From IMG/VR virus record IMGVR_UViG_3300032753_001573, positions 91,689-155,688 of that record: a DNA stretch of 64,000 bases. One strand, 5' to 3'. The notes beneath the pieces are model-generated. The model was not told the DNA's origin. It was given only the letters and a program-made list of their open reading frames with translations, and searched no databases. The position numbers were made by a program, and so were the translations under genes. Numbering within the stretch: position 1 is the first letter of the stretch; every line of letters starts with the position of its first letter. Positions 4,811-53,309 of the stretch are shown here, in pieces. The DNA comes from a virus.

Positions 4811-4862
4811 ATTTAATTATAGGGTCTTTACATTCTCATAAACCTGTGCTATAAATAAAATA

Positions 4863-5196
4863 GCTGTTGTTGATACCAACGGAGATAGCTGGATCGGAAG
4901 CGGGAGGCAGAGCCCGCCCACTCCACCAAAGATACATCGTGAGGGGCTAGTTATACGGCGCATTTGAACAAAGTATAACCCACTGTGTAATAGTGATCAT
5001 AAAGACAGTGAGCGGTGTATCTTTGATGGGGTGGAAACAGGATCGACGGACGTTGAAAAGGTTGGAGTAGATAGCCGTGCGCAAGCGACGTACCGCAAGA
5101 AAACTATAAGTGTCAACGATAACGTGGCACCTTATGAGATGAGCCTCGCGGTTTGACCTCAATGGGTTTGGTTTAGCCTGGAAACAGAATTAAACC
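4863..5196 (+). ncRNA. ssrA: two-piece (circularly permuted) tmRNA
   Basis: 3' acceptor CCACTCCACCA ends at 4928; 5' strand GGGGTGG-AAACAGGATCGAC starts at 5028; 7-bp stem with G3.U70; tag ORF 5112-5156 reads VNDNVAPYEMSLAV*; outer boundaries approximate. Confidence 0.93.
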
Positions 5197-5224
5197 AAAG
5201 AGGGCGGGAAACCGTCCTCTTTTT
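5197..5224 (+). terminator. intrinsic terminator after tmRNA
   Basis: AAAGAGGGCGG-GAAA-CCGTCCTCTTT followed by T-run. Confidence 0.85.
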
Positions 5225-22260: not shown

Positions 22261-22653
22261 TTATAAATTGTTACGTTGTTTTAAGTGTACTCTAAAGCTA
22301 CCTGCAGGACCATTCTTTCGACCTAGAGGTTCCCATTCTCTAATAGTTTTTGTAGCTCTGCACCAACTTTCAAATTCTCTAGCTATTTGGCCGCTTTTGC
22401 CAGTTATGACCACAACACTCTTGTCGCCATTCTTGTGATGCTGATCTATAAACTCTTTGAATCGCAGCCACGCTTCGTTTACAGGAAATCCGTGCAGATC
22501 CAGCTTGCGAGTAGTAACTTCGCTATAGGTATATTTTGGTATGAACGTGTCTCTGATATCTCGCAAATGAGATATATACCGTTGCCACATATCTCGATCT
22601 CTAGGATTAAGGGTATCTGAGGACTCGTTCATTGAATATACCTTGTGTTGCAT
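22261..22653 (-). CDS. Smr (small MutS-related) domain protein
   Basis: KLDLHG..V.EA...F..FI, VVVITGKSG, G.F.V.LK. Confidence 0.88.
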   Translation of the reverse strand: MQHKVYSMNESSDTLNPRDRDMWQRYISHLRDIRDTFIPKYTYSEVTTRKLDLHGFPVNEAWLRFKEFIDQHHKNGDKSVVVITGKSGQIAREFESWCRATKTIREWEPLGRKNGPAGSFRVHLKQRNNL

Positions 22654-22666
22654 CTATAAATAATAG

Positions 22667-23095
22667 ATGCAGATGAGAGAATTAATCAAGATACTAGAAC
22701 AAGTAAATGATAGCAGTAACAAAATAACACGTTCTGCATTCATATACCTGCCTCCAAAAACCCCCAAAGACAAATTCGCACAATGCAGTACCTGCCAATT
22801 GTTTTTACCAAATGCACAACGTTGCGGAATTTTTGGTAAGAGTGATGTTGTAAAGGCATCTGCATCTTGCGGATTATATCTACATGGCAAACCGCATGAT
22901 GATCAACCAATACAAGACATTGTCACACCAGAACAAGCAGGATATGTTGATCATGCTGTTAGATGTGAAAATTGCAGTTGGTACAAAGATCGGCAATGCG
23001 ATCTATTCAAACTGTTGAATAGCAAAATACCAGATGCATTTGATTGCGATCCAAACGTTGAACCACAGGCTTGTTGCAATGCCTGGCAAGAATGA
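22667..23095 (+). CDS. Cys-rich protein with two HiPIP-like repeats
   Basis: CSTCQLF..C...V....SC..Y and CENCSWY..C...V....CC.AW. Confidence 0.55.
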   Translation: MQMRELIKILEQVNDSSNKITRSAFIYLPPKTPKDKFAQCSTCQLFLPNAQRCGIFGKSDVVKASASCGLYLHGKPHDDQPIQDIVTPEQAGYVDHAVRCENCSWYKDRQCDLFKLLNSKIPDAFDCDPNVEPQACCNAWQE

Positions 23096-23132
23096 CATTT
23101 GTATAATTTCAATATTTGAACTATAATATAAG

Positions 23133-23183
23133 AGAGGACACGACACTCAACCCTCATAAAATATTCTGGTGTCATCTTAGGAG
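23133..23183 (+). promoter_or_regulatory. candidate preQ1-I-like pseudoknot riboswitch
   Basis: GAGG/CCTC stem, A-rich ATAAAATA tail, loop GACAC pairs with GTGTC next to AGGAG; behind TTGTAT-N17-TATAAT; upstream of the queD operon. Confidence 0.45.
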
Positions 23184-23190
23184 AACATAG

Positions 23191-23370
23191 ATGGCAAAAA
23201 TCATTATAACAACTGATTCAGGTAAGACTTTTACAGTTGACACCCTAGACAAATATTTGATGGATACAAGTGATCTTGGATTGCAGTCTACAATTGAGTT
23301 GTTTAAAATTATAGCAGAAGAAGTAGCAGCATTACATAATGCTGAAAAAGATTCTGTGGGAGTTAAGTGA
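23191..23370 (+). CDS. 59-aa hypothetical protein coupled to queD (below the ORF-track cutoff)
   Basis: AGGAG RBS; MAKIIITTDSGKTF...; TGATG overlap with queD. Confidence 0.65.
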   Translation: MAKIIITTDSGKTFTVDTLDKYLMDTSDLGLQSTIELFKIIAEEVAALHNAEKDSVGVK

Positions 23371-23840
23371 TGGCCAAGTACGTATCGACAAAAACTTACA
23401 AGCAGCTAGGACCAGTAGCATATAGGCAGTGGCGTGCAGACAGTCATTGTAATCAGATCCATGGATATGCACTCAGCTTCCATTTTGAGTTTGAATCAGA
23501 TACACTTGATGTTAGAAACTGGGTAATGGATTTTGGTGGATTAAAGCCATTGAAGAGTTTGTTAGAAGATTGGTTTGACCATACTCTACTAGTAGCAGCC
23601 GATGATCCACAGCGCGAACACCTGCTCAATCTAGGCAAGCTTGGGCTAGCTAAAATTACAGAAGTAGAAAAGACTGGATGCGAAGGGCTAGCAGATTTCC
23701 TCTATGAATATGTAAACACTATATTTTTGCCAAATTACGGTGAGAAAGATCGCATATGGTGTAGCAGAGTTGAAGTAAGAGAGACTGATGCCAACATGGC
23801 CATGAGGATCGGCCATAGAGAAGATCGAGAATTTGATTAA
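23370..23840 (+). CDS. queD: 6-carboxy-tetrahydropterin synthase / PTPS family
   Basis: HCNQIHGY, WVMDFGGLK, FDHTLL, GCEGLA, VEVRET. Confidence 0.88.
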   Translation: MAKYVSTKTYKQLGPVAYRQWRADSHCNQIHGYALSFHFEFESDTLDVRNWVMDFGGLKPLKSLLEDWFDHTLLVAADDPQREHLLNLGKLGLAKITEVEKTGCEGLADFLYEYVNTIFLPNYGEKDRIWCSRVEVRETDANMAMRIGHREDREFD

Positions 23841-24069
23841 ATTAAACGTTTACCATCTAAAATACTGATAAAATAATATATGCCCGGCTAATATTATGCG
23901 CGGGTATATATTTCTGCGTCACTGTCTTAAATACAGTTGATGTCGAACGTGAAGGACTATAAAACGCCGCAATATTTATATAATTTTCCAATGATATCAA
24001 CAAGATATTTTTGTAATATTGACAGGCAGTCCTGCGCAGTATAAAACGTAAAAAAAGGAAGATTTAAGC

Positions 24070-24603
24070 ATGATAAAATTGATGAACGTTGCAGCCATCT
24101 GCACCTTATTATTAACTGCCGCTGCTAGTGCAGCTGGTTATGATAGCGAATTGGAGGCATTGAACAAGAGATTTGTCGTTACTGATCCAGAAATTGCAAA
24201 TGCCGATGCGTCGTCTAAAAGACAGATGACTTGCATTGCTCTAAATGTTTATTTTGAATCTAGAGGTACAATTGAACGACAGCAAGAAGGTGTAGCTTGG
24301 GTAGTCAAGAATAGATCTAAGTCAAATAAGTTTGCAGGATCAAATATGTGTGATGTAGTATTTCAGAGAATGGGAGGATTTCCGCAATTTGCATGGATCG
24401 CACATCCAAGTAAGGGATATGAATCTGGATCTTGGAAGCAAGCCCAGGCTATTGCAAAAGGTGTATTTTATGATAGAATACCGGATCCAACCCACGGCGC
24501 ATTAAGTTTTCATGAAGTTAATCTTCCTGCAAAGTTTAGGAAATATGACAGAGGCGGATTGAGAATTGGAAGCCACGTATTCTATAACATAGCTGCTAAA
24601 TAG
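24070..24603 (+). CDS. cell wall hydrolase (SleB / Hydrolase_2)
   Basis: Signal peptide; CIALNVYFESRG, V..VVKNR, QFAW, DPTHGALSFH, IGSHVFY. Confidence 0.9.
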   Translation: MIKLMNVAAICTLLLTAAASAAGYDSELEALNKRFVVTDPEIANADASSKRQMTCIALNVYFESRGTIERQQEGVAWVVKNRSKSNKFAGSNMCDVVFQRMGGFPQFAWIAHPSKGYESGSWKQAQAIAKGVFYDRIPDPTHGALSFHEVNLPAKFRKYDRGGLRIGSHVFYNIAAK

Positions 24604-31831: not shown

Positions 31832-32461
31832 ATGAAAGCAATTGAGAGAATACATTTAGAAATAACGAGCAGATGCACGTTAGCTTGTCCACAATGTCCT
31901 CGCACCGAATTTAAGGATTTAAATATTATATCTGATATGCCTATAGAGACAGCAGCAGCGGCATGTAAAGGATATAATCATATGTACATAGTTGGAAATC
32001 ATGGAGATCCTATATATCATCCTAAGTTTCATGAACTAATGTCTAGATTAAGGGAGGATAATCCTCTTTTGACATTTTATTTTCATACTAACGGAAGTTT
32101 CAGAAGTGAAAAATGGTGGATAAAAACAGCTAATATACTCAATCATCTAGATGAGATAGTTTTCAGTATAGATGGTTTACCTGGTAATGATCTGTATAGA
32201 GTTAATTCTAGATGGTCCTCTATAGAATTGGGTATCAAAACTTTACGTAAGCATAATACAAAATTAAAGATGACTTGGAAGTGGATACATTTCAAATATA
32301 ATCAAAATGATGTAGAATCTGCTATAGATATTGCTAAAGATCTAGGTTTTGATCAATTCTGTTTCGTTGAGAGCGACAGGACTCAGGACGGACATTGGTT
32401 AACACCGGAGATTTCCTGGAAATCAGTGAAGGATAAGTTATATGCCAGTTGTAGAAGCTAA
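31832..32461 (+). CDS. radical SAM protein
   Basis: CTLACPQC (CxxxCxxC), GNHGDP, HTNG, FSIDGL. Confidence 0.9.
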   Translation: MKAIERIHLEITSRCTLACPQCPRTEFKDLNIISDMPIETAAAACKGYNHMYIVGNHGDPIYHPKFHELMSRLREDNPLLTFYFHTNGSFRSEKWWIKTANILNHLDEIVFSIDGLPGNDLYRVNSRWSSIELGIKTLRKHNTKLKMTWKWIHFKYNQNDVESAIDIAKDLGFDQFCFVESDRTQDGHWLTPEISWKSVKDKLYASCRS

Positions 32462-35809: not shown

Positions 35810-36961
35810 ATGGACATCAGTTTTATCACACAAGACCTGCGTGATCTGCGTGCTCATTTTAACCAGCATGGTTTTGATCTGCGACTGGTTGGTGGTGTCG
35901 TGCGTGACACGCTGGCGGGACTGCCTCCCAAGGATCTGGACCTGGCTACGGATGCCAAACCCCATGAGCAAGTTGAAATCTACAACGCTCACGGTTATCG
36001 CTGGATTGGCACGGGCATGGATCACGGCACGATTACGGTCATGCTGGGTGACGAGCCGCATGAGATCACCAGCCTGCGCGTTGACGTTGAGACGGATGGC
36101 AGGCATGCCAAGGTTGCATTTACGAGCGATTGGGAAGCTGACCTGGGTCGCAGGGACCTGACGATCAATGCTATGGCTATGACGTTTGACGGCAGACTGA
36201 TTGATCCGTTTGGTGGTGCTGACGATCTAGCCAACGGTGTTGTGAGATTTGTTGGCAACGCCGAAGCTAGGATCCGAGAAGACTATCTGAGGATCCTGCG
36301 GTTCTATCGCTTCTACGGCAGGTTTGGCCGCGGCGGCATTGATAGCCAAACGCGACAAGCTATTGCGTCCAATGTGTACGGTCTGCAACAGATCAGCAGG
36401 GAGCGCATCTGGAGCGAATTTCAAAAGATTCTGCCGCAAGCTGCATCTCCTGCTATCATGATTGATATGGTACAAGGTGTGGGCATTAATCATCACATTG
36501 ATCTGCCCTATAACAATGTCAGTTGGCCCAGATGGTGGCTGCACAAGGCTCTGACCATCACGAACGATCCTGCTGTACTGATGGCAGCATGGTGCTGTTA
36601 TGATCCGGTGAACGTGGAAAGTGTTGCTAAAAGTTGGAAATGGAGCAATGCGGACCGTGATCATGCAATGTGGCTGTGTAATAATGTCAGGTGCAAACGC
36701 GACCTGCGTTGGCTGATTGCTGTTGAGGGTGCTCCCAGGGAGTGGGTTGCTGAACTGGCTGCTCTGGAGGAGCGCGACGGTTGGGAACAGAATGCCCTGG
36801 TTCAATGGGTCTTTGCTCCGTTCCCTGTTAACGGTAACGATCTGATTGCAGCAGGTGTCAAACCCGGTGCAGCTATGGGCAAGATGCTGCGCATGCTGAA
36901 AGAGTCTTGGGCTCACAGCAGCTACTCTGCTACCAAAGAAGAGCTGCTGAAACTGATCTAG
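35810..36961 (+). CDS. cca: CCA tRNA nucleotidyltransferase / poly(A) polymerase family
   Basis: LVGGVVRD, DLDLATDA, EITSLRVD, RRDLTINAM, EDYLRILRFYRF, ISRERIW.E. Confidence 0.9.
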   Translation: MDISFITQDLRDLRAHFNQHGFDLRLVGGVVRDTLAGLPPKDLDLATDAKPHEQVEIYNAHGYRWIGTGMDHGTITVMLGDEPHEITSLRVDVETDGRHAKVAFTSDWEADLGRRDLTINAMAMTFDGRLIDPFGGADDLANGVVRFVGNAEARIREDYLRILRFYRFYGRFGRGGIDSQTRQAIASNVYGLQQISRERIWSEFQKILPQAASPAIMIDMVQGVGINHHIDLPYNNVSWPRWWLHKALTITNDPAVLMAAWCCYDPVNVESVAKSWKWSNADRDHAMWLCNNVRCKRDLRWLIAVEGAPREWVAELAALEERDGWEQNALVQWVFAPFPVNGNDLIAAGVKPGAAMGKMLRMLKESWAHSSYSATKEELLKLI

Positions 36962-40921: not shown

Positions 40922-43049
40922 TTGATGACATCGGTTGATAGTGCATTTACCATTACAGCTTCTGGTCGTGCATTCAAAGTGCTGAGCGACGGACTTTATT
41001 CTGACAAGATTTCTGCTGTGATCCGAGAGCTCAGTTGCAATGCCTATGACAGTCACGTAGCAGCAAACAAAGTAGATGTACCATTTGAAATTCATTTGCC
41101 TAGCGATAACGAACCTTGGTTCAGCGTACAAGATTATGGTCTTGGTATTAGCGACGCAGATATTCACAGCATTTACACTAGGTATTTTACCAGCACCAAA
41201 GTTGGTAATAGCAATCAGATAGGTGAGCTTGGCCTCGGTAGCAAAAGTCCATTTAGTCTAGTTCGAGAATTTGAAGTTACCAGTATTCATAACGGTACTT
41301 GTAGCAGGTATCGAATGTATTTTGATGACAGCGATACTCCGCGAGTACAGTTAGTAGAACAGAAGCCAACTACTGACGGCAACGGCCTGCAGGTCAAATT
41401 CACTGTACCCAATTACCATGATAGATTAGAATTTGAATCCAAAGCAATTAATGTTCTGCGATGGTTCAAAACTACACCCATAGTCAAGCTTGAACAGGCG
41501 ATTGTAGAGATTGAAAATCTCACAGTCAACATCAACTCCAATGGTTGGGGATTGCAGCCCAATGTTTCTAGATATGCAATGCCCTATGCACTTATGGGTA
41601 ACGTAGCATATCTATTGGAAAAGAGCAGCATCAAGGGCAATGACGATCATGCGTTCAGTGTATTGCGCCTGCCGCTGATTGTGCGGTTTGATATTGGTGA
41701 GCTAGAAGTGGCTGCTAGCAGAGAAGGGTTAGGCTACGATGATCGCACTTGCAATAACCTAAAAACTCGGTTGATTGCTGTCTATAATGATATCCACCAG
41801 CAGTATGCTGATAAAATTAGTTCAGCTGATACAGAATGGGATGCTCGTTCAATCTGGAACCAATATCTTGGCGAAAATGTTGACTTCCGTTGGGAGTTGC
41901 ATGAAATTTTTTCTAATCGTGTTTTTAAGTGGCGCGGGGTTGAAATCAAAAACAAGTACAAGATTATAGATCTCACTAAGTTTTATTCAGCTGCTAGCAT
42001 AAACAAGAATAACACCGTACGATGGATTCATCGCGGCGATATTGCCATGCATCGTGTGCGCCAGAATGACTTCAAAAAGCATAGTGTGAGTTGCACCAAT
42101 GACGTTAAGATCGTCTTTGATGATTTGCCTCGTAATGGGGCCAAGAGAGTAAAGCATTGGCTATCCAACTGCAAAGAAAATATAAAGGTATATCTCTATT
42201 CGCAACCAGATGTTTATAGTAAGCCAGCAGACGGTTGGCCAGCTCTGTATCAAGATTTGGGGTGTCCAGAGATCATTTGGACTAGTGAACTTGAAGCTCC
42301 GCCTGTTACAAAACGCAACAGGAAGCCGGTCAAGATGTTAAAGTTTGGTACCGATGTCTGGCGTCATGTTTGGCAGGAGGTTGACATTGACCTATCCAAA
42401 GGCGGATTTTATATTGACAAGGATCGCAATGATCCGATAATAGAAGATGGTTTTAAGGTCTCACTTAGCTCAGTTGTATCTAAGGCCAAAGAGCTTGGAT
42501 TGTTGACGGAATTTCCTGACATTTACTCGAGCAATAAATCTACTTTGAAAAAGATCAGTAAGATGAAAAATTGGGTAAACATTATCTCATATTTGAGGGA
42601 AAAGTTCTCTGAATTAATTTCAAGTGAAGACTATTGGGCTGATCATATTGCTACATCTGAACTGCTCAACAATATTAGAAGTAGCATGCCTGTTCGAGAT
42701 TTCTTCCTTTATCGCTGGGATCTACGAGATGAAAATAGTGCTATGAAGAAGTTGTTGACCATCTATCATGAATGGTCGTCAAAGATTAATACAGGTCAAA
42801 TGGAAAAAAATTGTTAACTTCTCTAGAAGTTTGGATATTGATTTGAATGTTCAACAGGGCAAAACAGATACCAGGATATCGGATGCGTTTGCTGAATTCA
42901 AGCACCGTTATCCTATGTTGAAGATGTTAAATTATTCAAGCTTCAATTCATCGTTTAATGTAGTCAACGATTATATCAACATAGTTGATATGTCTTGGGT
43001 TTATTTTGAACTCAGCCGTCCAATGCCAACCGTTGAAGAAGATGATTAA
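40922..43049 (+). pseudogene. rIIA: rIIA-like GHKL protein, split by an A7 tract (42804-42810) into ORFs 40922-42817 and 42768-43049
   Basis: AFKVLSDGLYSDKISAVIRELSCNAYDSH, QDYGLG, GLGSKSPF, F.IGELE..ASREGL.Y; removing one A gives MEKIVNFSRS and fuses the ORFs. Confidence 0.8.
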
Positions 43050-45984: not shown

Positions 45985-46016
45985 GATAAGGTGGGGAAAT
46001 CCCACCTTATCATTTT
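45985..46016 (+). terminator. intrinsic terminator
   Basis: ATGATAAGGTGGG-GAAAT-CCCACCTTATCAT-TTT. Confidence 0.85.
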
Positions 46017-46034
46017 ATACAAATTACCGAGGCA

Positions 46035-46247
46035 ATGTTTAAAATGGACAATCAACTGTGCGACAAAGTTATCCTTAGGATTGCCGAGCAAGTGTTAAAT
46101 TTAGATACTCTAGACACACGCAACAGCGATGATCTCGATTTTCGAGATTTGGCTGTGTGGAATATCCGCGCTGCTCTTGAAGCAGCATATGATGCTGGGT
46201 ATCGTGCTGCACAACGCAATACTTCCAATGAGTTCGATAGTGATTGA
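46035..46247 (+). CDS. DUF6900-like protein
   Basis: TLDTRNSDDLDF.DLAVW.IR.ALEAAYDAG. Confidence 0.75.
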   Translation: MFKMDNQLCDKVILRIAEQVLNLDTLDTRNSDDLDFRDLAVWNIRAALEAAYDAGYRAAQRNTSNEFDSD

Positions 46248-46473
46248 GTTTTGGAACCTATCCTCTGAACAGATAGACAGTGGATTAGACTTTATGTATG
46301 ATTCTAGTCTGCGCGCCATGCATCCAGATGATCCTATTCTCGCACTATCATTTGATAGCAGATTTCAAAAGTTAGCACATATGTGGTTAGAATGCGGTCG
46401 AGACATGACTTTGATGCGGTTGAGATACGCAGATGAAATAGAACGTTTGCTACAATATCCTTGGCAAGTATAA
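46240..46473 (+). CDS. hypothetical protein
   Basis: GTG start overlapping the upstream stop region. Confidence 0.5.
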   Translation: MIEFWNLSSEQIDSGLDFMYDSSLRAMHPDDPILALSFDSRFQKLAHMWLECGRDMTLMRLRYADEIERLLQYPWQV

Positions 46474-46483
46474 GTTAAAACAC

Positions 46484-46759
46484 ATGTCAGGATATCCCTG
46501 GGAGTTTGATTATAAGGCGTGGCAGGACGAGAGCATTAAGCTTTCTAATCGACTTATTTCCGTATCTGATATAACTATCCGGAAAGATCTCCAAAAGATG
46601 TATCTAGCTGTTTATGATCTAGCAGTAGATATAACTCGTGAGGAAGTAGAATGCAGGCGCAAACGTCGCCAAAGTTACAAGCATCAAGAGATGCTAAAAA
46701 AATTTGCCGAGATGAAACAGAACTTAATTGAGCACATCACTTGGGCGCTGCTGATGTGA
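46484..46759 (+). CDS. hypothetical protein
   Basis: EEVECRR motif; 91 aa. Confidence 0.65.
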   Translation: MSGYPWEFDYKAWQDESIKLSNRLISVSDITIRKDLQKMYLAVYDLAVDITREEVECRRKRRQSYKHQEMLKKFAEMKQNLIEHITWALLM

Positions 46760-46765
46760 GATGCG

Positions 46766-48514
46766 TTAACCTATGTAGGCAACGCCCCAGCTGTCGTTGG
46801 CATCAAACGTCACCGTGCCTCCGGTTGCCACGACCTGAAGGTTATCACCTGCATTGAGCTTGACGATGCCGCTCACGCCCCAGTGACTGGGTCCGCTGAG
46901 GCTGCCGTTCAGGGTTTCCCAGTAGAGCACGGTGGTGCCGTTGGCAGTATTTGTTTGACCGTTCTTCTTCATGCAGGCACTAGCACTGCTTCCGCCGGAT
47001 ATGCGCAGGTTCATGAATGCGCTGTACAGTCCAGCCACTGGTGCGGTGAACACACCAGTGCTGTTGTTGTAGGCGCTGCCTTGGTTGTAGTCCACGTACT
47101 GGTTGGTTATGGTTGTGGCGGCGGTGAAATTATTGCTGGTGGTGGCTGTGATCCTGACAGCGGGGCGAGTAGGCAGCGTTATACCGTATGATCCTATCTG
47201 TGCCCATTGCGTGAAGCTGCTGGTGCCTCTAAACTGGAACACACCTCCGGCTGACCCACCAGTGCCTAGATCCATGTACATGGTGCTGTAGGTCACGCTG
47301 TTGTCACGCACGGCCATGTTGCCATTCATCAGCAGTGCAACGTTGCCTGCCGCGGCTGATCCCGCTGAAAACGCCACCGACGCGTTGCCCACCATGGTGG
47401 CCTGGCTGGTCACCGTGCCCGTCACGGCCAGCGTGCCCGTTACCGTGAGGTTTGCGTTGCCGTCCAAGGTCATCTTGGTGGCACCCGGCTGGTACCAGCG
47501 GAAGGTGCCGTTGCTGTTGTCTATCTCCCAGTTCTGTGCCGCGTTGCCGTTGGCGAACACCACCCTAGGCGTCTGGCTGCTACCGATGCCGGTGTTGCCT
47601 GCATACACCCCCGCCACCGTGGTGCTCTCGTTGAATGGGCCCGAGAATGATCCGTATCCACCGGCGTTGATGTTGCCTGCTATGCCGACGCCCCCGGCCA
47701 CTATCAGGGCTCCTGTGGTGGTGCTGGTGCTGGTGTTGGTGCTGTTGACGGTGACGTTCTGTCCGAAGCGTCCGTAGGTGTTGCTGACCAGACCGTTGAC
47801 GACCTGCACCCCGTTGCTGGTGCTGCCCGAGTGGTACACGTTGCCGCCCACGTAGAGATCGCCACTGACACCCAAGCCGCCCGTGACCACGACCGCGGCA
47901 TTGGCGGTGCTGGTAGCAGCAGCGTTGCCGCCAATGGTGATGTTGGCCATGAGGGCGGTGCTGCCCAGCTGCGTGATGCTAGCATAGCTGCCAATGGTAC
48001 CGCGTGCTGTAGCCGTTCCTGAGCCAGCGTACACCCTGAGCTTCACGCTTTGGTTGGCGGTGGGTGTATATACCAGTTTGAGGCTGGTGTTGGTGCTTTC
48101 GTTGGTGTTCCGGTTGATGGGTTCAGACAGGCCTGCCACTGATCCGCTGGCGACTAATGATGTGTTGCTGGTGGCGTCCACCCATTGATACAACAGATAA
48201 CCACCACTGAGATCGCTGAATGTGCCCCAGTTTATGTTGGCAAACAGCTCATAGGTCTTGCCGCCAGTGAGGGTAAACACACCTGTGCTGGTGTTATAGG
48301 CTATGCCGTTGGCATATATCTGTGTGTCAAATATGATGTCGGTGTTGATGCCAATGCCTGCGTCGTCCGCGCTGTTGTAGACCTGGCATAGATCAGCCAC
48401 GTAACCTGTTACCGAACGTGTGCGTGTCCAAGCATTGCTGCTGGCGCTCCACTGGTAGGTGATGTTGTTGACCGTGGCCAGCTGACCATCCGAGGGGGGA
48501 TAGGGGAAACTCAT
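46766..48514 (-). CDS. tail-fibre/adhesin protein with a C-terminal C1q-like domain
   Basis: MSFP..P..GQ....NNITYQW, STSTTTGALIVAGGVGIAGN, YNNSTGVFTAPVAGLY, VKLNAGD. Confidence 0.8.
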   Translation of the reverse strand: MSFPYPPSDGQLATVNNITYQWSASSNAWTRTRSVTGYVADLCQVYNSADDAGIGINTDIIFDTQIYANGIAYNTSTGVFTLTGGKTYELFANINWGTFSDLSGGYLLYQWVDATSNTSLVASGSVAGLSEPINRNTNESTNTSLKLVYTPTANQSVKLRVYAGSGTATARGTIGSYASITQLGSTALMANITIGGNAAATSTANAAVVVTGGLGVSGDLYVGGNVYHSGSTSNGVQVVNGLVSNTYGRFGQNVTVNSTNTSTSTTTGALIVAGGVGIAGNINAGGYGSFSGPFNESTTVAGVYAGNTGIGSSQTPRVVFANGNAAQNWEIDNSNGTFRWYQPGATKMTLDGNANLTVTGTLAVTGTVTSQATMVGNASVAFSAGSAAAGNVALLMNGNMAVRDNSVTYSTMYMDLGTGGSAGGVFQFRGTSSFTQWAQIGSYGITLPTRPAVRITATTSNNFTAATTITNQYVDYNQGSAYNNSTGVFTAPVAGLYSAFMNLRISGGSSASACMKKNGQTNTANGTTVLYWETLNGSLSGPSHWGVSGIVKLNAGDNLQVVATGGTVTFDANDSWGVAYIG

Positions 48515-51500
48515 CAGTACAGCCTCTCTATGCTAATCATGTTGTTGTTGTAACCGGGGCCTATCTGCAGCGTGATGCGATAGCTCCTGAAGTTGGTGGT
48601 ATCACTCAGTATGTATGTGGATATGTCGCCGGCACCGGTAAAGTTCCAGCCAAACGATGATGTGGCAACGGAGGTTGTAACGGCTTGGGAACCAGAGCTT
48701 CCGCCACTGCCGCCATTGACAGCATAATTACCGCCTATATAGTATGTATTAGATCCTGACACCGTTGACAGGCTCAAGCCTCTGTTGCCACCGGTGGTTA
48801 CCGTGGCCTTGAGGTTGTCCATGACCACATATACACCAGCGTTCGCGAATCCACTGGCGATGGTAGCAGTTGGTGCGCTGAAGGTCGGTCCGTCATAGTC
48901 CAACCAGAAGCTGCTGTTGCCGTCCGTGGTCCAGCGATACATCACGTCAGTGCTTGAATTATACCATATGTCGCCTATGGTGGGGTTGGCTGGTGCCGTT
49001 GCGCTGGTGGTGCTGCGCACGCCGCCGGCCACTATGCTGCCGGTGCCAACTAAGTTGCCCATCACGCTCACCACACCCGTGCCTGCGGGATCCAGCGTGA
49101 TGTTGGCATTGCCTGATGATTGCACGGAACCGGTGCTTATGGTTAGGTTGCCTACGGTGACGTTACCACTGAGGTAACCTGCCACGTTGGTGTTGCCGTA
49201 GCTGCTCGCTGGCGTGCTGAATGCCAACGCGCCGTTACCGTTAGTGGTCAGCACCTGCCCGGTGGTGCCACCCGTGATGGTCACGTTGGCAATGTTGCCC
49301 AGATTGGCGGCACCCGTCACGACGAGGTTACCGATGGATATGTTACCGCTGAGATAGCCGGCCACGTTGGTGTTGCCGTAGTTGCTGCCACCGCCTGCCC
49401 CTGTTGGTCCCGTGGCACCTTGCAATGCCGGAACGTATGCTCCTATGACCTGTATGTCGAACCATGGGTAGCTGCCGGCCAGTGCGAAATCACCATTGCC
49501 GCCAGCCTGTATGGTAGCGCTCGCGCTGACCAACCTATAGCTGACCACCGTGCTGACATTTGGTGTGAAAACATACTCGCTGATGCCACCTGAGGCACCA
49601 TTTGATGCGGCATCGGCGGGATTGTAGCTTTCTGATAGGCTGCCGACGTATGCACCTGCCGTCTCGTTATACCAACCGAATGCTGGTCGGGAACCTGTCC
49701 AGCTTGGTACCAATGCCGTTAGCCTGTAGGTGCTGTTGGCTGCCAGCGTGATGTTGCCGGTGCTGGTGTTGAGGCTGATGTCGCTTGACGCATATGCATC
49801 TACCTGCGTGAACACTATGCGTGTGCCTGCTGACATGCCGGTCTGTGCGGCGCTGCGGCTGCCACGCATGAAGCTGGCCGCAGGTAGCGCACCAGTGGGT
49901 CCGGTAACACCCGTGGCACCTTGGTAACCGCCGGTCAGCTGCACCCAGGTGACGCCTGTGGTGCCATTGTTATCACTGAAGCTGTTGAAGCTGCCTGTGC
50001 TGGCGAATGCTCGCAGGGTATAGGTGGCACTACCAGATGTGGTGAGGATTATCCTACCATTACCGGTGCCTGCCTGTGAAGCCGCGGTGCTGTTGTAATA
50101 GCTCAGAACCTGGCTGTTGGGAACCAACGTGCCCGTTGGATCATACAGCGCGAACTCTCCTGCGAACGCTGCGCTGGAGCTCTGCGCACGCATCCAATAG
50201 CTGACGTCCCAGGTCCCTGCGCTGGGCAGGGTGAACGTAACTACCGTGACCGGGGTGCTGCTTGTCACCGATATTGATGAGGTGGCTTGATAGGCATTGC
50301 CGGTCACGGGCGGGCTGTTTGGTGTTGCACCGGTTGGACCAGTTGCACCGTAACCAGTGGCTCCTGTTGGACCTATGCTGCCACTGGCTCCGGTTGGACC
50401 CGTGACCGTGCTGGGCGCGCCGGCGGCTCCTGTTGGACCCGTGCTGCCTTTGATGCCACTTGCACCGGTCGGTCCGGTCACGTTGCTGGCCGCACCCGTG
50501 GCACCTGTCGCACCCGTGGGTCCGGTGCCTCCGACTATGGGTTGACCGCCCACCGTTATGCTGTTGGCGTTTATGTTATATGCTGAGACGTTACCACTGA
50601 CACCCAACCCACCGTTTATGGTCACGGCGTTGGCCGTGCCTGGCGCGTTGAACTGTGCCACGATGTATGTGCTGTCGGCACCTCCGCTGATGATGCGCGT
50701 GACGGTCCCTGCGATGCTGGTTCCAATGACGAGGTTGCCACCCTGCCCCGGATAGCTGGGATCTCCCTGCACGTATAGATACCCGTCGTCCTGCAGCAGG
50801 GCGTTGCCTAGGCTGTTGCTCTGAGTGCCGTCCCAACCGCTGCCGGCGATGCCTAGATCTATGTAATGGCTGGTGTCCGTGCCGTTGTCGGCGGTGACCA
50901 CCCAGTCGCCGCTGGCTGTGTTGCCGCTGTTGATGTTCTGCAGGTTGTTCTGCACGTAATCGTTGATGCTGGCCGAGCTCTGTATGACGGGGTTGGCCAC
51001 GGTGCTGTAGCCAACCTGTATGCCGGCGTAGAGGGCACCCAGACCGTTCTCATCCCCGTAGAACTTGCCGCTGTTGCCTGTTATCTGGGTGACGCTGCCG
51101 CTGAGGTTGATGTCGCCCTGCACGTAGAGGTTATCCAGTATCAGCGTGTTACCGGTGACGATTAGGTTCGCGAACTCCACGGCATCGCCGGTGTTGAGGC
51201 TCTGGTTGAATGGATTGTTGGCACCCGTGGGCCCCGCGGGTCCGGTGTGGCCTGTTGGTCCAGTGACCGTGCTAGTGGAACCAGTTGGTCCCGTGGCGCC
51301 GTCCATGCCATCGGCACCCGTCGGTCCTGTGGGCCCTGTGCTGCCAAGGTCGCTACCGCCCACCAGCGCGTTGCTGCCGTCGCTCCAATTGATGGTGCCT
51401 CCTGGTGGCAGGGTGAGGTTACCATCCGCGCCAAAAAGCCATGTGGATCTATCGTAAACGTATGTTCCAGTTGGCGGTACGCTGCCATAGGGTGGGTGGA

Positions 51501-53202
51501 TCTCCCACTGGGCCAAGGGATTCCAGTATGGGCCCATGTTGATGTACAGCGACTGGCCAAATCCTGGCACGAATATGCCCCATTGACCAGCGCTGTATTC
51601 TATGTGGGGATCACTGGCGGGATTGTAACCTGCTGGCATCCAGATATCAGCCTGTGGATCATAGGTGTAGGTGAGGTTCACAGCTACGAAATCTGCGCCG
51701 GTTATCACTATGGTCTGAGGACGGCAGCCCGGCGTGACATACACACCATCATTGATGGCCTCATGCACCGTGCTGGTCAGCGGCAGCGTGAGGTTACCAT
51801 CTGTGCCAAATGTCCAGGCATGCGTGCCGCTGTCAGTGGTAGCGTTGCTGTAGAGTATGACCTCACCCTGGCTGCCCACGACGAGATTGGTAGTATCAGC
51901 CTGGATGTAGCTGTCGTTGGGCAGACCCAGCACGCCCGCGTCTCTGAAGCGCCAGATGTGATCAAAGGCAGTGATCACCACTTGGCCATAGCTGCTGGCG
52001 GCGGAGCCTCCAATGATGTACACGAAACCCGCATCTCCATCGGGGCTGTCTCCACCTTTGATGGTCACGTCACCACCGAAGTCTCCGCCAAACCCTGCGC
52101 TGAGGTACAGATGCCCACCTGTGCCGCTGCCGGGATCAACAGGTGTGCCGGCTGTGATGTCTAGGTCAAGCCCAGTGCCACCAATGGTGGCCGTGGTTGG
52201 CAGAGTGAGATTGCCATCTAGTCCAAACGTCCAAGTGTAAGCAGAATCAAGCAGATTAGTTGTTAGTTCAACATCAAATCCAATCCTGACATTTGTTTTT
52301 GGGTTACCGCTTACTACATCTAAACTGTATAAGTTCAAAGTGCTTTCCGAAGAGGAAATGCTTGCCCAGTTATTCCCCTCCCAGGTAAAATTGATAGCAC
52401 CGTTGCCACCATTAACGCCGTCTGGCATGGTCAGCACGCCGTCTGAGCCAAAGGTCCATGGTTGATTACCGGCAGCCAGCAGAGTGATGTTGCCATTGTA
52501 GGTCTGCACGTAGCCATCGTCTGGCAGCGTGAGGTTACCATCCCCGCTGAGTATCCAGTCTGCGCCATCGGCACTGAGCTTGAGGACCGATGCACTGGCT
52601 ATGCTCGCAGGCACCTCAGGCGCTTGCCCCTGCACCGTGACCGTCCATTCACTGCCATTGTTGTGGATGCTGCTCACATACAGGGTGAAGTTGAATCCAG
52701 CTATGCCCGTGACGCTTGGACCATACACGAAGGCATCGCCGTTGACGTATCCAGGATTGCTGGGCCAAGTCTGGGTGTTGTTGCTGAAGGCATGCACATG
52801 CCCATAGTCATCCACGGCAAAGCTCACGCTATAGGTCCAGGCATTGCCCGTGAGGTTCAGCACCGTGTGGCCGGGATGCGGGCGGAAGTACGTGGGTGTG
52901 AGATCTGCTGTGAACGTCACAGGCAGGCTGCTGGGCACCGAGAAGCCCCCGTTCCCAGCAAAGTACCAGTTCTGGCCGTTGGTGGACAGCGCTATGTCCT
53001 GGTTGGTGGTGGTACCTATCGCGGTGCCGGTGAAGGTTATGTCGCCTGTGTTGGCATTGCCGGTTACAGTATGGCCACCAGGAGTAACATTATCTGCAAT
53101 CCTCAGAACGCCGTCGGCACCAACTACTATTTCTCCAAACGGTCCAACATATGCGTTAGCATCTGTATTCAAAGTTTGGCTAGTATATACACGCATGGTC
53201 AT
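48514..53202 (-). CDS. long modular tail-fibre protein (Mtd_N-like N-terminus, collagen-like GPTGA repeats)
   Basis: YVGPFGEIVV...LRI.DNVTPGG; recurring W.FG.DG.LTLP; G-x-T triplets; 1562 aa. Confidence 0.85.
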   Translation of the reverse strand: MTMRVYTSQTLNTDANAYVGPFGEIVVGADGVLRIADNVTPGGHTVTGNANTGDITFTGTAIGTTTNQDIALSTNGQNWYFAGNGGFSVPSSLPVTFTADLTPTYFRPHPGHTVLNLTGNAWTYSVSFAVDDYGHVHAFSNNTQTWPSNPGYVNGDAFVYGPSVTGIAGFNFTLYVSSIHNNGSEWTVTVQGQAPEVPASIASASVLKLSADGADWILSGDGNLTLPDDGYVQTYNGNITLLAAGNQPWTFGSDGVLTMPDGVNGGNGAINFTWEGNNWASISSSESTLNLYSLDVVSGNPKTNVRIGFDVELTTNLLDSAYTWTFGLDGNLTLPTTATIGGTGLDLDITAGTPVDPGSGTGGHLYLSAGFGGDFGGDVTIKGGDSPDGDAGFVYIIGGSAASSYGQVVITAFDHIWRFRDAGVLGLPNDSYIQADTTNLVVGSQGEVILYSNATTDSGTHAWTFGTDGNLTLPLTSTVHEAINDGVYVTPGCRPQTIVITGADFVAVNLTYTYDPQADIWMPAGYNPASDPHIEYSAGQWGIFVPGFGQSLYINMGPYWNPLAQWEIHPPYGSVPPTGTYVYDRSTWLFGADGNLTLPPGGTINWSDGSNALVGGSDLGSTGPTGPTGADGMDGATGPTGSTSTVTGPTGHTGPAGPTGANNPFNQSLNTGDAVEFANLIVTGNTLILDNLYVQGDINLSGSVTQITGNSGKFYGDENGLGALYAGIQVGYSTVANPVIQSSASINDYVQNNLQNINSGNTASGDWVVTADNGTDTSHYIDLGIAGSGWDGTQSNSLGNALLQDDGYLYVQGDPSYPGQGGNLVIGTSIAGTVTRIISGGADSTYIVAQFNAPGTANAVTINGGLGVSGNVSAYNINANSITVGGQPIVGGTGPTGATGATGAASNVTGPTGASGIKGSTGPTGAAGAPSTVTGPTGASGSIGPTGATGYGATGPTGATPNSPPVTGNAYQATSSISVTSSTPVTVVTFTLPSAGTWDVSYWMRAQSSSAAFAGEFALYDPTGTLVPNSQVLSYYNSTAASQAGTGNGRIILTTSGSATYTLRAFASTGSFNSFSDNNGTTGVTWVQLTGGYQGATGVTGPTGALPAASFMRGSRSAAQTGMSAGTRIVFTQVDAYASSDISLNTSTGNITLAANSTYRLTALVPSWTGSRPAFGWYNETAGAYVGSLSESYNPADAASNGASGGISEYVFTPNVSTVVSYRLVSASATIQAGGNGDFALAGSYPWFDIQVIGAYVPALQGATGPTGAGGGSNYGNTNVAGYLSGNISIGNLVVTGAANLGNIANVTITGGTTGQVLTTNGNGALAFSTPASSYGNTNVAGYLSGNVTVGNLTISTGSVQSSGNANITLDPAGTGVVSVMGNLVGTGSIVAGGVRSTTSATAPANPTIGDIWYNSSTDVMYRWTTDGNSSFWLDYDGPTFSAPTATIASGFANAGVYVVMDNLKATVTTGGNRGLSLSTVSGSNTYYIGGNYAVNGGSGGSSGSQAVTTSVATSSFGWNFTGAGDISTYILSDTTNFRSYRITLQIGPGYNNNMISIERLY

Positions 53203-53309
53203 AGTAGATCTTTGCTCTCAATTTGTCTTATATTTACCAAATTTCCAAACAGGCAACTAGATGGTCAGAGCAAGTGACCCACACCGAACGATCAATTAAG
53301 TTGCTAGTT

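Follow-up and report, generated by a model that had tools for sequence, protein, structure and literature searches.

The pseudoknot in the leader of T4 gene 32 is an autogenous translational operator that binds protein, and T4-type phages use RNA operators for translational control. Few riboswitch families are, to our knowledge, mainly phage-borne, and every preQ1 riboswitch known to us is an OFF switch. Class I preQ1 riboswitches (preQ1-I) are H-type pseudoknots with a conserved G-C floor (G5-C18), with A30 in an A-rich loop 3 (L3), with a specificity C directly before the 3' strand of stem P1 and after U (type I) or A (types II and III), and with U6 in loop 1 (L1) contacting the ligand in all types, types I and III having a UU motif there; they control expression in the OFF direction via a buried Shine-Dalgarno (SD) sequence or a terminator (PMC11625349). 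A further report describes a preQ1-I riboswitch that can regulate translation although separated from its SD (PMC10018353). Variant ('snuggler') riboswitches have altered specificity, such as guanine-I variants sensing 8-oxoguanine or 2'-deoxyguanosine (2'-dG) (PMC11625349). Here we describe a 41-nt pseudoknot upstream of a queD-like gene in a 64-kb stretch of viral DNA (hereafter the window), which is the last 64 kb of the 155,688-bp IMG/VR record IMGVR_UViG_3300032753_001573 (about 36% complete by CheckV).

The pseudoknot structure and its link to queD are established, and in well over a hundred uncultured phages the motif stands ahead of the same gene, its base changes compensating one another. 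Conserved unpaired bases, covarying stems, several expression platforms and constant gene association were all found, as is generic for riboswitches, and the best-supported mechanism is a small-molecule ON riboswitch with a preQ1-I-like fold, which we regard as probable, with some reservation. We infer both that the motif binds a small molecule and that it switches in the ON direction. A first-pass annotation of this DNA, made from the letters alone, had interpreted the leader as a riboswitch variant, and this interpretation is partly supported.

Structure of the leader element

The leader reads A-GAGG-ACAC-GACAC-U-CA-AC-CCUC-AUAAAAUAUUC-UG-GUGUC-AUCUU-AGGAG-AACAUAG-AUG in the window, and its aptamer consists of the following parts.

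23133..23173, + strand: aptamer, a 41-nt H-type pseudoknot (covariance model R1, 30.8 bits, E 1.4e-8; both helices covary in the family)
23134..23137, + strand: 5' strand of P1, GAGG, pairing with CCUC at 23152-23155
23138..23141, + strand: L1, ACAC (the main type of the family reads [U/A/C]-C-U)
23142..23146, + strand: 5' strand of stem P2a, GACAC, partner of GUGUC at 23169-23173
23147, + strand: invariant U, bulged in the window and in a U.C mismatch with a conserved C in the main type
23148..23149, + strand: 5' strand of stem P2b, CA, part of a conserved UCA, pairing with UG at 23167-23168
23150..23151, + strand: loop 2 (L2), AC, in which C23151 is the invariant cytosine directly 5' of the P1 3' strand (alignment A1)
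23152..23155, + strand: 3' strand of P1, CCUC (read from the sequence and the family pairs)
23156..23166, + strand: L3, AUAAAAUAUUC, A-rich with three invariant A, then a conserved YUC
23167..23173, + strand: 3' strand of P2, UG (P2b) then GUGUC (P2a) (from the sequence and the family alignment)

The GAGG/CCUC pairing of P1, the GACAC/GUGUC pairing of P2, the A-rich tail (23156-23163) and the distance of 5 nt between P2 and the SD are all as the first-pass annotation had placed them. P2 is longer than described there, with CA 23148-23149 and UG 23167-23168 added across the bulged U23147. The architecture is preQ1-I-like as claimed, with a 5-bp P1 ending in an invariant G-C pair, an invariant C and an A-rich L3, and the two caveats entered at that time were correct: the canonical UUC start of the loop is missing and the second stem is longer. 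C23151 occupies the position of the preQ1-I specificity base and may, by analogy, have the corresponding function. The invariant columns of L3 in alignment A1 are A27, A29, A31, T33 and C34. In the window, A23133 lies opposite A23156, a position at which 37 of 40 relatives have an A-U pair, and G23169 stands where 33 of 35 relatives have C.

Conservation and covariation

QueD relatives with 82-90% amino-acid identity were taken from viral contigs and the 110 nt upstream of each were read; in most of these the element stood immediately in front of the queD ATG. The family consensus is AGNGG-[U/A/C]CU-(P2a 5')-UCA-YC-CCNCU-NUANAAAYUC-UG-C-(P2a 3'), in which the second L1 base is an invariant C. 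A motif parser scored 61 of 81 sequences as positive (42 unique), and the motif was present in 63 of the 80 phage loci fetched by QueD similarity. Covariance model R1, built from the 35 unique cores of alignment A1, recovered 67 copies at 30.8-64.7 bits, two of which sit about 200 nt upstream of queD (L068 and L073; L-numbers denote fetched contig loci, viral or from metagenome-assembled genomes (MAGs), with gene neighbourhoods annotated from open reading frame (ORF) calls). No second convincing copy was found with R1 in the window or in the whole 155.7-kb record.

Covariation was assessed in alignments A2 (40 distinct sequences: QueD-selected viral loci, the window and four MAG loci) and A3 (80 distinct sequences, nearly all pattern-selected, 79 of 88 sources). 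Covariation among homologous leaders, which the first-pass annotation had set as a test of its proposal, was evident in both (92-93% paired versus 74-76% shuffled): the share of paired cells was 92.1% in A2 against 73.5% in shuffles and 92.7% in A3 against 75.6% (0/500 each), and the covariation scores were 0.489 against 0.151 and 0.422 against 0.128, respectively, figures that are not probabilities because the sequences are related. With slid partners as a control, 36-50% (A2) and 34-50% (A3) were paired. Changes on both sides were seen at 8 of 12 pairs in A2 and 7 of 12 in A3, and comprise most P2 pairs and two P1 pairs. In a register-independent test, the P2a duplex energy was -4.60 kcal/mol with own partners and -2.76 kcal/mol with permuted ones (z = -5.7, 0/20000).

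The P1 pair of columns 2-33 in A2 is GC in 34 and CG in six sequences, and that of columns 3-32 is CG in 25, AU in 11 and UA in four, while the top two P1 pairs are G-C in 40 of 40 distinct A2 sequences and in 79/80 and 80/80 of A3. P1 accordingly occurs across the family as GAGG/CCUC, GCGG/CCGC, CCGG/CCGG and GUGG/CCAC. More than ten complementary forms of P2a were found, including GGCG/CGCC, GGCA/UGCC, GGAC/GUCC, GGCAU/AUGCC, GACAU/AUGUC, GACUU/AAGUC, GGUUU/AAGCC, GUGU/ACAC and the GACAC/GUGUC of the window. The P2b extension is newly recognised: the UCA after P2a pairs with UG (C-G, A-U) across the conserved U.C mismatch, and all four unique sequences with UCG have CG in place of UG (AU 36, GC 4, zero exceptions in A2). 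The many distinct compensatory types leave little doubt about the structure. In all three alignments the unpaired bases of this RNA of about 45 nt are strongly conserved and the stems freely variable.

Association with queD-like genes

A gene-blind scan used a single RNA pattern without protein information on viral contigs and on 185,579 prokaryotic species genomes (one each). The viral contigs contained at least 120 pattern stretches; among the matches listed, 79 of 79 new loci had a queD-like ORF downstream, mostly beginning 20-50 nt past the pattern match. Thirteen pattern matches came from the species genomes, and the four that were real by R1 (41-52 bits) each lie on a short MAG contig, with a more divergent queD-like gene directly downstream. 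Taken with five copies of a rarer form described below, 88 of 88 pattern-selected copies (79 viral, 4 MAG, 5 of the UCUGG form) lie upstream of queD-like genes. The motif is associated with three or more clades of QueD and occurs in phage genomes that differ greatly. Pattern matches in L092 and L098 (Obscuribacterales) and in L227 were rejected as chance matches, with weak scores and no downstream queD.

A second, partly degenerate aptamer copy (27.7 bits) was seen at L111:8-53 (+), about 1 kb upstream of the regular copy at L111:1002-1048. Its P1 covaries (CCAG/CUGG), UCUGC has become UUCGC, and it precedes an S-adenosylmethionine (SAM)-methyltransferase-like ORF with a VLDLGSGTG motif. Every other copy seen stands directly before a queD-like gene or before a small ORF that leads into one.

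In the window, the aptamer is followed by two genes.

23191..23370, + strand: orphan ORF of 59 aa (ORF59), the first gene after the leader, whose TGA stop overlaps the queD ATG by one base (TGATG)
23370..23840, + strand: queD-like gene of the 6-carboxytetrahydropterin/6-pyruvoyl-tetrahydropterin synthase family, 156 aa (PF01242, E 3.7e-16)

The element had been described as the leader of a queD operon. The queD-like gene is indeed downstream, but ORF59 comes first.

Searches against known RNA families

The preQ1-I model RF00522 (threshold 39 bits; a B. subtilis positive control was detected) gave nothing at the gathering score in the window and nothing at E≤10 in window positions 23050-23250, and no match at E≤1 in ten related loci, at E≤10 in the leader of L047, or in four motif-bearing MAGs. 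Searches with all families of Rfam 15, including preQ1-II (RF01054), preQ1-III (RF02680) and the THF-II/folE motif, gave no match in the window leader or in ten related leaders. The earlier placement of the element as a variant outside the known family agrees with this, with the RF00522, preQ1-II and preQ1-III models unmatched on the leader even at E≤10. A published description of the motif was not found in the literature on phage queD, preQ1 variants, riboswitch candidates and 7-deazaguanine, and in the Seurat phage paper riboswitches appear in a reference only. From its modelled structure we read the motif as one that would work like a preQ1-I aptamer, yet is not a member of RF00522.

Expression platforms and predicted switching

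Downstream of the knot, the predicted fold of the window leader contains a hairpin that competes for the 3' strand of P2.

23170..23177, + strand: 5' arm of the sequestering helix, UGUCAUCU, in the minimum free energy (MFE) fold, with four bases common with the P2 3' strand
23179..23183, + strand: SD, AGGAG, in the loop of the sequestering hairpin, 5 nt after P2
23189..23196, + strand: 3' arm of the sequestering helix, AGAUGGCA, spanning the AUG at 23191-23193

The 8-bp sequestering hairpin of the window has a folding energy of -9.2 kcal/mol, compared with -3.8 ± 1.9 in shuffles (z = -2.8), and withholding the P2 strands raises the unpaired probability of the AUG from 0.00, the value of the free fold, to 0.28. 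With -8.7 kcal/mol for the sequestering duplex and only -6.9 kcal/mol for the P2 duplex, the window leader is predicted to be off by default. Around the constant core there are at least three platform types, which differ by lineage.

Type A: GCC-UAUG...CAUAGG-AG, hides the SD
Type B: UGUCAUC...GAUGGCA, hides the AUG (the type of the window)
Type C: ACUCC...GGAGU, hides the SD

In each of these types it is the P2 3' strand on which the sequestering helix draws. Codon 2 covaries with the helix in type B (U-G, C-G, and U-A in Thr-2 variants). At least three of the nine bases of the P2 3' strand pair with the SD/AUG window in the MFE folds of 113 of 116 distinct platforms (mean z = -1.9), and the mean unpaired probability of the SD across platforms rises from 0.42 to 0.82 on withholding the P2 strands. 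Since the P2 3' strand is thus common to the knot and to the helix that hides the SD or AUG, an ON switch is predicted.

In the proposed ON switch, the two-gene transcript of ORF59 and the queD-like gene, probably coupled via TGATG, would start with the 41-nt pseudoknot aptamer. As long as the knot is absent, UGUCAUCU would pair with AGAUGGCA, locking the start codon in the 8-bp hairpin and keeping translation off. Once the knot forms, P2 (GACAC/GUGUC plus CA/UG) would take the strand, block the hairpin and free the AUG. Stacked between the invariant G-C pair that tops P1 and the A-U pair at the base of P2, and paired with C23151, a small ligand would stabilise the knot, and switching on ORF59 translation would switch on queD through the coupling.

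The reverse direction would follow if the element were a divergent preQ1-I riboswitch in its known mode, in which preQ1 or preQ0 binds, the knot forms and queD is repressed by feedback, for example by a knot that hinders the 30S subunit. Such an OFF switch is in line with the same fold, with its conserved G-C floor, specificity C and A-rich L3, with the place of queD in the preQ0 pathway, and with PMC10018353, in which a preQ1-I riboswitch is reported to regulate translation apart from its SD. In our motif, SD and AUG lie outside P2, the wiring is the opposite in 113 of 116 platforms, RF00522 does not match and the equivalent of U6 is variable, and we consider feedback repression distinctly improbable. 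A ligand-free translational operator, in which a protein (the QueD-like enzyme or a phage repressor), temperature or co-transcriptional kinetics sets the choice between knot and hairpin, appears rather unlikely to us. The phage is T4-like by its topoisomerase II subunits and RIIA, and P2 is long enough for unaided folding, both of which speak for an operator. Against it stand unpaired bases conserved amid variable stems, as in small-molecule aptamers, pocket-like elements in common with preQ1-I, platforms that vary around a constant core, and the spread of the motif over three or more QueD clades and phage genomes that differ greatly.

The queD-like enzyme, its pathway and candidate ligands

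The QueD-like protein of the window matches phrog_2389 'QueD-like' (E 1.6e-41), reaches 38.8 bits with the NCBIfam QueD model, for which the cut-off is 89, and weakly matches PDB 7v0f. It shares the motif SHCxxxHGY with its homologues in L099, L101, L225 and L228, a clade below the NCBIfam QueD cut-off, at a place where canonical QueD has CxxxHGH. Given this motif and the score under the threshold, the product of the enzyme may be 6-carboxytetrahydropterin (CPH4) or another pterin.

FolE (GTP cyclohydrolase I) is encoded 1-3 kb upstream of queD in five of five large related contigs (L022, L046, L050, L073 and L005; 144-264 kb, 41-71% complete), and QueE-like radical SAM genes (phrog_2076) lie just downstream of queD in L022, L058 and L073, two of these three on large contigs. 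QueC and TGT/DpdA were not detected on the five large contigs at this completeness, which also counts against the OFF switch on preQ1 or preQ0. With FolE and QueE-like genes present and QueC and TGT/DpdA not detected, preQ1 is not the obvious product, and the gene content of the related phages looks like a partial 7-deazaguanine pathway stopping at 7-carboxy-7-deazaguanine (CDG). The window record, at about 36% completeness, showed no FolE, QueE-like, QueC or TGT gene; a radical SAM ORF at 31832-32461 was considered as QueE and rejected, being generic radical SAM by NCBIfam and PHROGs. Varied other neighbours were seen near queD, encoding a kinase, a cytidylyltransferase, an epimerase/dehydratase, a cysteine-dioxygenase-like protein and a metallophosphoesterase.

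The invariance of the C at the position of C23151 suggests by analogy a ligand with a guanine-like face; candidates are the 7-deazaguanines preQ0, CDG and preQ1, pterins (for instance the substrate of QueD) and guanine. Because of the ON logic, a precursor such as the FolE product would be as plausible as preQ0 or preQ1. A more specific version is possible but doubtful in our estimate: the motif would be a new riboswitch class peculiar to phages, in which the preQ1-I fold serves to sense another metabolite with a guanine face and to switch translation on; its ligand could be the FolE product and QueD substrate (a dihydroneopterin-type pterin) or CDG/preQ0. Were it true, this would be the first ON-type member of the preQ1-I fold and would provide feed-forward control of a phage 7-deazaguanine or pterin pathway, and the UCUGG form of the window would be a natural pocket-proximal variant.

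The rare form of the window and ORF59

The window carries a UCUGG form that is rare among the aptamers: L1 reads ACA(C) where the main type has [U/A/C]CU, A.A takes the place of the first P1 pair, and the conserved C opposite the invariant U is replaced by a G, whose pairing with the last C of the loop makes the U bulge out. Five further copies came from a scan for the UCUGG form. Giant-phage contigs of 455-524 kb carry four of them and a 145-kb contig the fifth, and all five are upstream of queD-like genes with platforms of the same logic. The copies form the groups L225/L229, L228/L230, L231 and the window, and the reference type that their QueD-like proteins match best differs from group to group. 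UCUGG copies have a purine as third L1 base, namely G in L228/L230 and A in L225, L229, L231 and the window, and 39 of 39 main-type sequences of the set fetched without RNA constraint have U there; this correlation may point to L1 touching the U/C site.

ORF59 has no homologue among 5.8 billion proteins, a peptide-pattern search of viral contigs was also empty, and there was no match in Pfam, NCBIfam or PHROGs. It begins ATGGCAAAA, as does queD in the relatives, and this start is the part needed by the sequestering helix. An origin by duplication of the leader was rejected: the best alignment of 23133-23205 with 23291-23385 covers only the 11-nt AAAA-AUUCUG (p ~0.1). Unrelated small ORFs lie between aptamer and queD in L068/L073 (also 59 aa) and in L231, and L180 has a comparable gap of 392 nt. 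Since ORF59 lies between aptamer and queD, the aptamer would directly gate ORF59, and queD expression presumably follows by translational coupling.

The unusual form and the intervening ORF raise the question of a decaying relic before an inserted orphan ORF, with queD no longer regulated. In this direction point the A.A in P1, the altered L1 and the lost C, an R1 score of 30.8 bits with only three UCUGG copies lower, ORF59 without homologue, and the relatives without the element. All helices are intact in the window (P1 with 4 bp, P2a with 5 bp, P2b and the 8-bp AUG helix), as are the invariant C and As, the UCUGG form recurs before queD in other giant-phage contigs, small ORFs recur independently at the same position (L068/L073, L231), and the stop/start overlap keeps queD coupled; we therefore regard decay as very improbable.

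Several observations weigh against the small-molecule ON riboswitch. About 20% of the related queD genes lack the element, and no Rfam preQ1 model matches it. The base equivalent to U6, the first of L1, differs from preQ1-I in being U, A or C. The window copy has the lowest R1 score among the QueD-fetched copies (three UCUGG copies are lower, 22.5-24.8 bits) and could be weakened because it has A.A for the first P1 pair and has lost a conserved C; moreover, its SD is unpaired either way (0.83 and 0.82) and the release of its AUG is incomplete. In type A platforms (CCUAUG/CAUAGG) the ON logic is less clear-cut because of an alternative, weak AUG hairpin that the modelled knot state gains (AUG unpaired ~0.07). 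A stable knot close to the SD could hinder the ribosome, and a P2 of 7-8 layers, often G+C-rich, might form ligand-free and make the element constitutive or protein-controlled. Finally, biosynthetic genes are not usually under ON switches, and the pathway logic of such a switch is hypothetical here.

Transcription signals

23099..23127, + strand: putative sigma-70-type promoter TTGTAT-N17-TATAAT, read from the sequence (-35 at 23099-23104, -10 at 23122-23127)
23875..23912, + strand: terminator-like hairpin, 13-bp stem then UUCU (-20.8 kcal/mol, z = -3.5)

The promoter proposed in the first-pass annotation is present, and the transcript would start at about 23133-23135, the first aptamer bases, but its -35 box is weak (3/6 matches) and was missed by a consensus scan. 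In the relatives L094, L124, L129 and L135, TTGACA-N17-TATAAT ends 6-8 nt before the motif. A sigma-70 promoter as a family-wide feature was rejected, with a strong pair in just 5 of 77 flanks. In 28 of 77 distinct flanks (L106-L184), TAAATA, which we take to resemble the T4 late-promoter core, lies 2-22 nt upstream of the aptamer, with an enrichment at 5-13 nt. Judging from these motifs, the element may be transcribed at different infection stages in different phages. The hairpin at 23875-23912 probably ends the two-gene transcript, as its predicted fold indicates.

The phage

Topoisomerase II subunits, RIIA and tail fibres are among the window genes of this T4-like giant phage. A tRNA nucleotidyltransferase of the CCA-adding enzyme family (phrog_2244; 35810-36961, +), a RIIA homologue (40922-42817, +) and a two-piece (permuted) transfer-messenger RNA (tmRNA) gene (4823-5199, +; RF01849 90.2 bits, RF04321 67.6 bits, no ARAGORN call) together show that the phage carries translation-related genes. 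The tmRNA is of alphaproteobacterial type and therefore hints at an alphaproteobacterial host. The G+C content is 53-60% at 46000-53300 and about 40% elsewhere in the window; this G+C-rich region spans a 1562-aa minus-strand ORF with tail-fibre matches (48514-53202). A 'distant' blastn search with window positions 22600-24100 gave no match in the phage GenBank collection.

Comparison with known systems

If the small-molecule ON riboswitch is confirmed, a well-studied small aptamer fold gains a new switching logic and possibly a new ligand, the timing of a 7-deazaguanine or pterin pathway in giant phages becomes visible, and a very small natural ON switch becomes usable for engineering.

The T4 gene 32 pseudoknot resembles the queD motif in being a 5' leader knot of a T4-like phage and in its control of translation initiation, which for the queD motif is predicted. 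It differs in lacking metabolite-pocket-like conservation, whereas the queD motif has conserved unpaired bases of the aptamer type and interchangeable platforms. With the 'snuggler' variants the queD motif shares a retained aptamer architecture, changed bases around the pocket and a gene context that is related but not identical. It differs from them in that helices and loop lengths are also altered, for which reason the parent model no longer detects the RNA.

The closest likeness is to preQ1-I (RF00522), whose types I-III are exemplified by Carnobacterium antarcticum, B. subtilis queC/T. tengcongensis and E. coli. Both are small H-type pseudoknots in the 5' leader of a 7-deazaguanine-pathway gene, with P2 formed by the P1 loop and the 3' tail, a 5-bp P1 with an invariant top G-C pair, an A-rich L3 and an invariant C 5' of the P1 3' strand. 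The base preceding this C is mostly U in the motif, as in type I, and sometimes C or A; the window has A before the C at the specificity position, as in types II/III. The likeness extends further once P2b is counted, for L2 then has two bases ending in the invariant C, L3 has about 10 nt, and the junction-proximal P2 pair is a conserved A-U. In contrast to the 3-4 layers of preQ1-I, P2 of the motif counts 7-8, made up of 4-5 bp in P2a, a U.C mismatch or U bulge, and 2 bp in P2b. L3 has an extra conserved YUC before P2b; in preQ1-I, L3 leads straight into a short P2 3' strand and its last A (A29/A30) lies in the pocket. The motif was confined to phage contigs and short MAG contigs and to sites ahead of queD-like genes. 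Its SD lies at least 5 nt downstream of P2, SD and AUG are both outside the knot, and, different from preQ1-I, the P2 3' strand is itself the anti-SD/anti-AUG strand.

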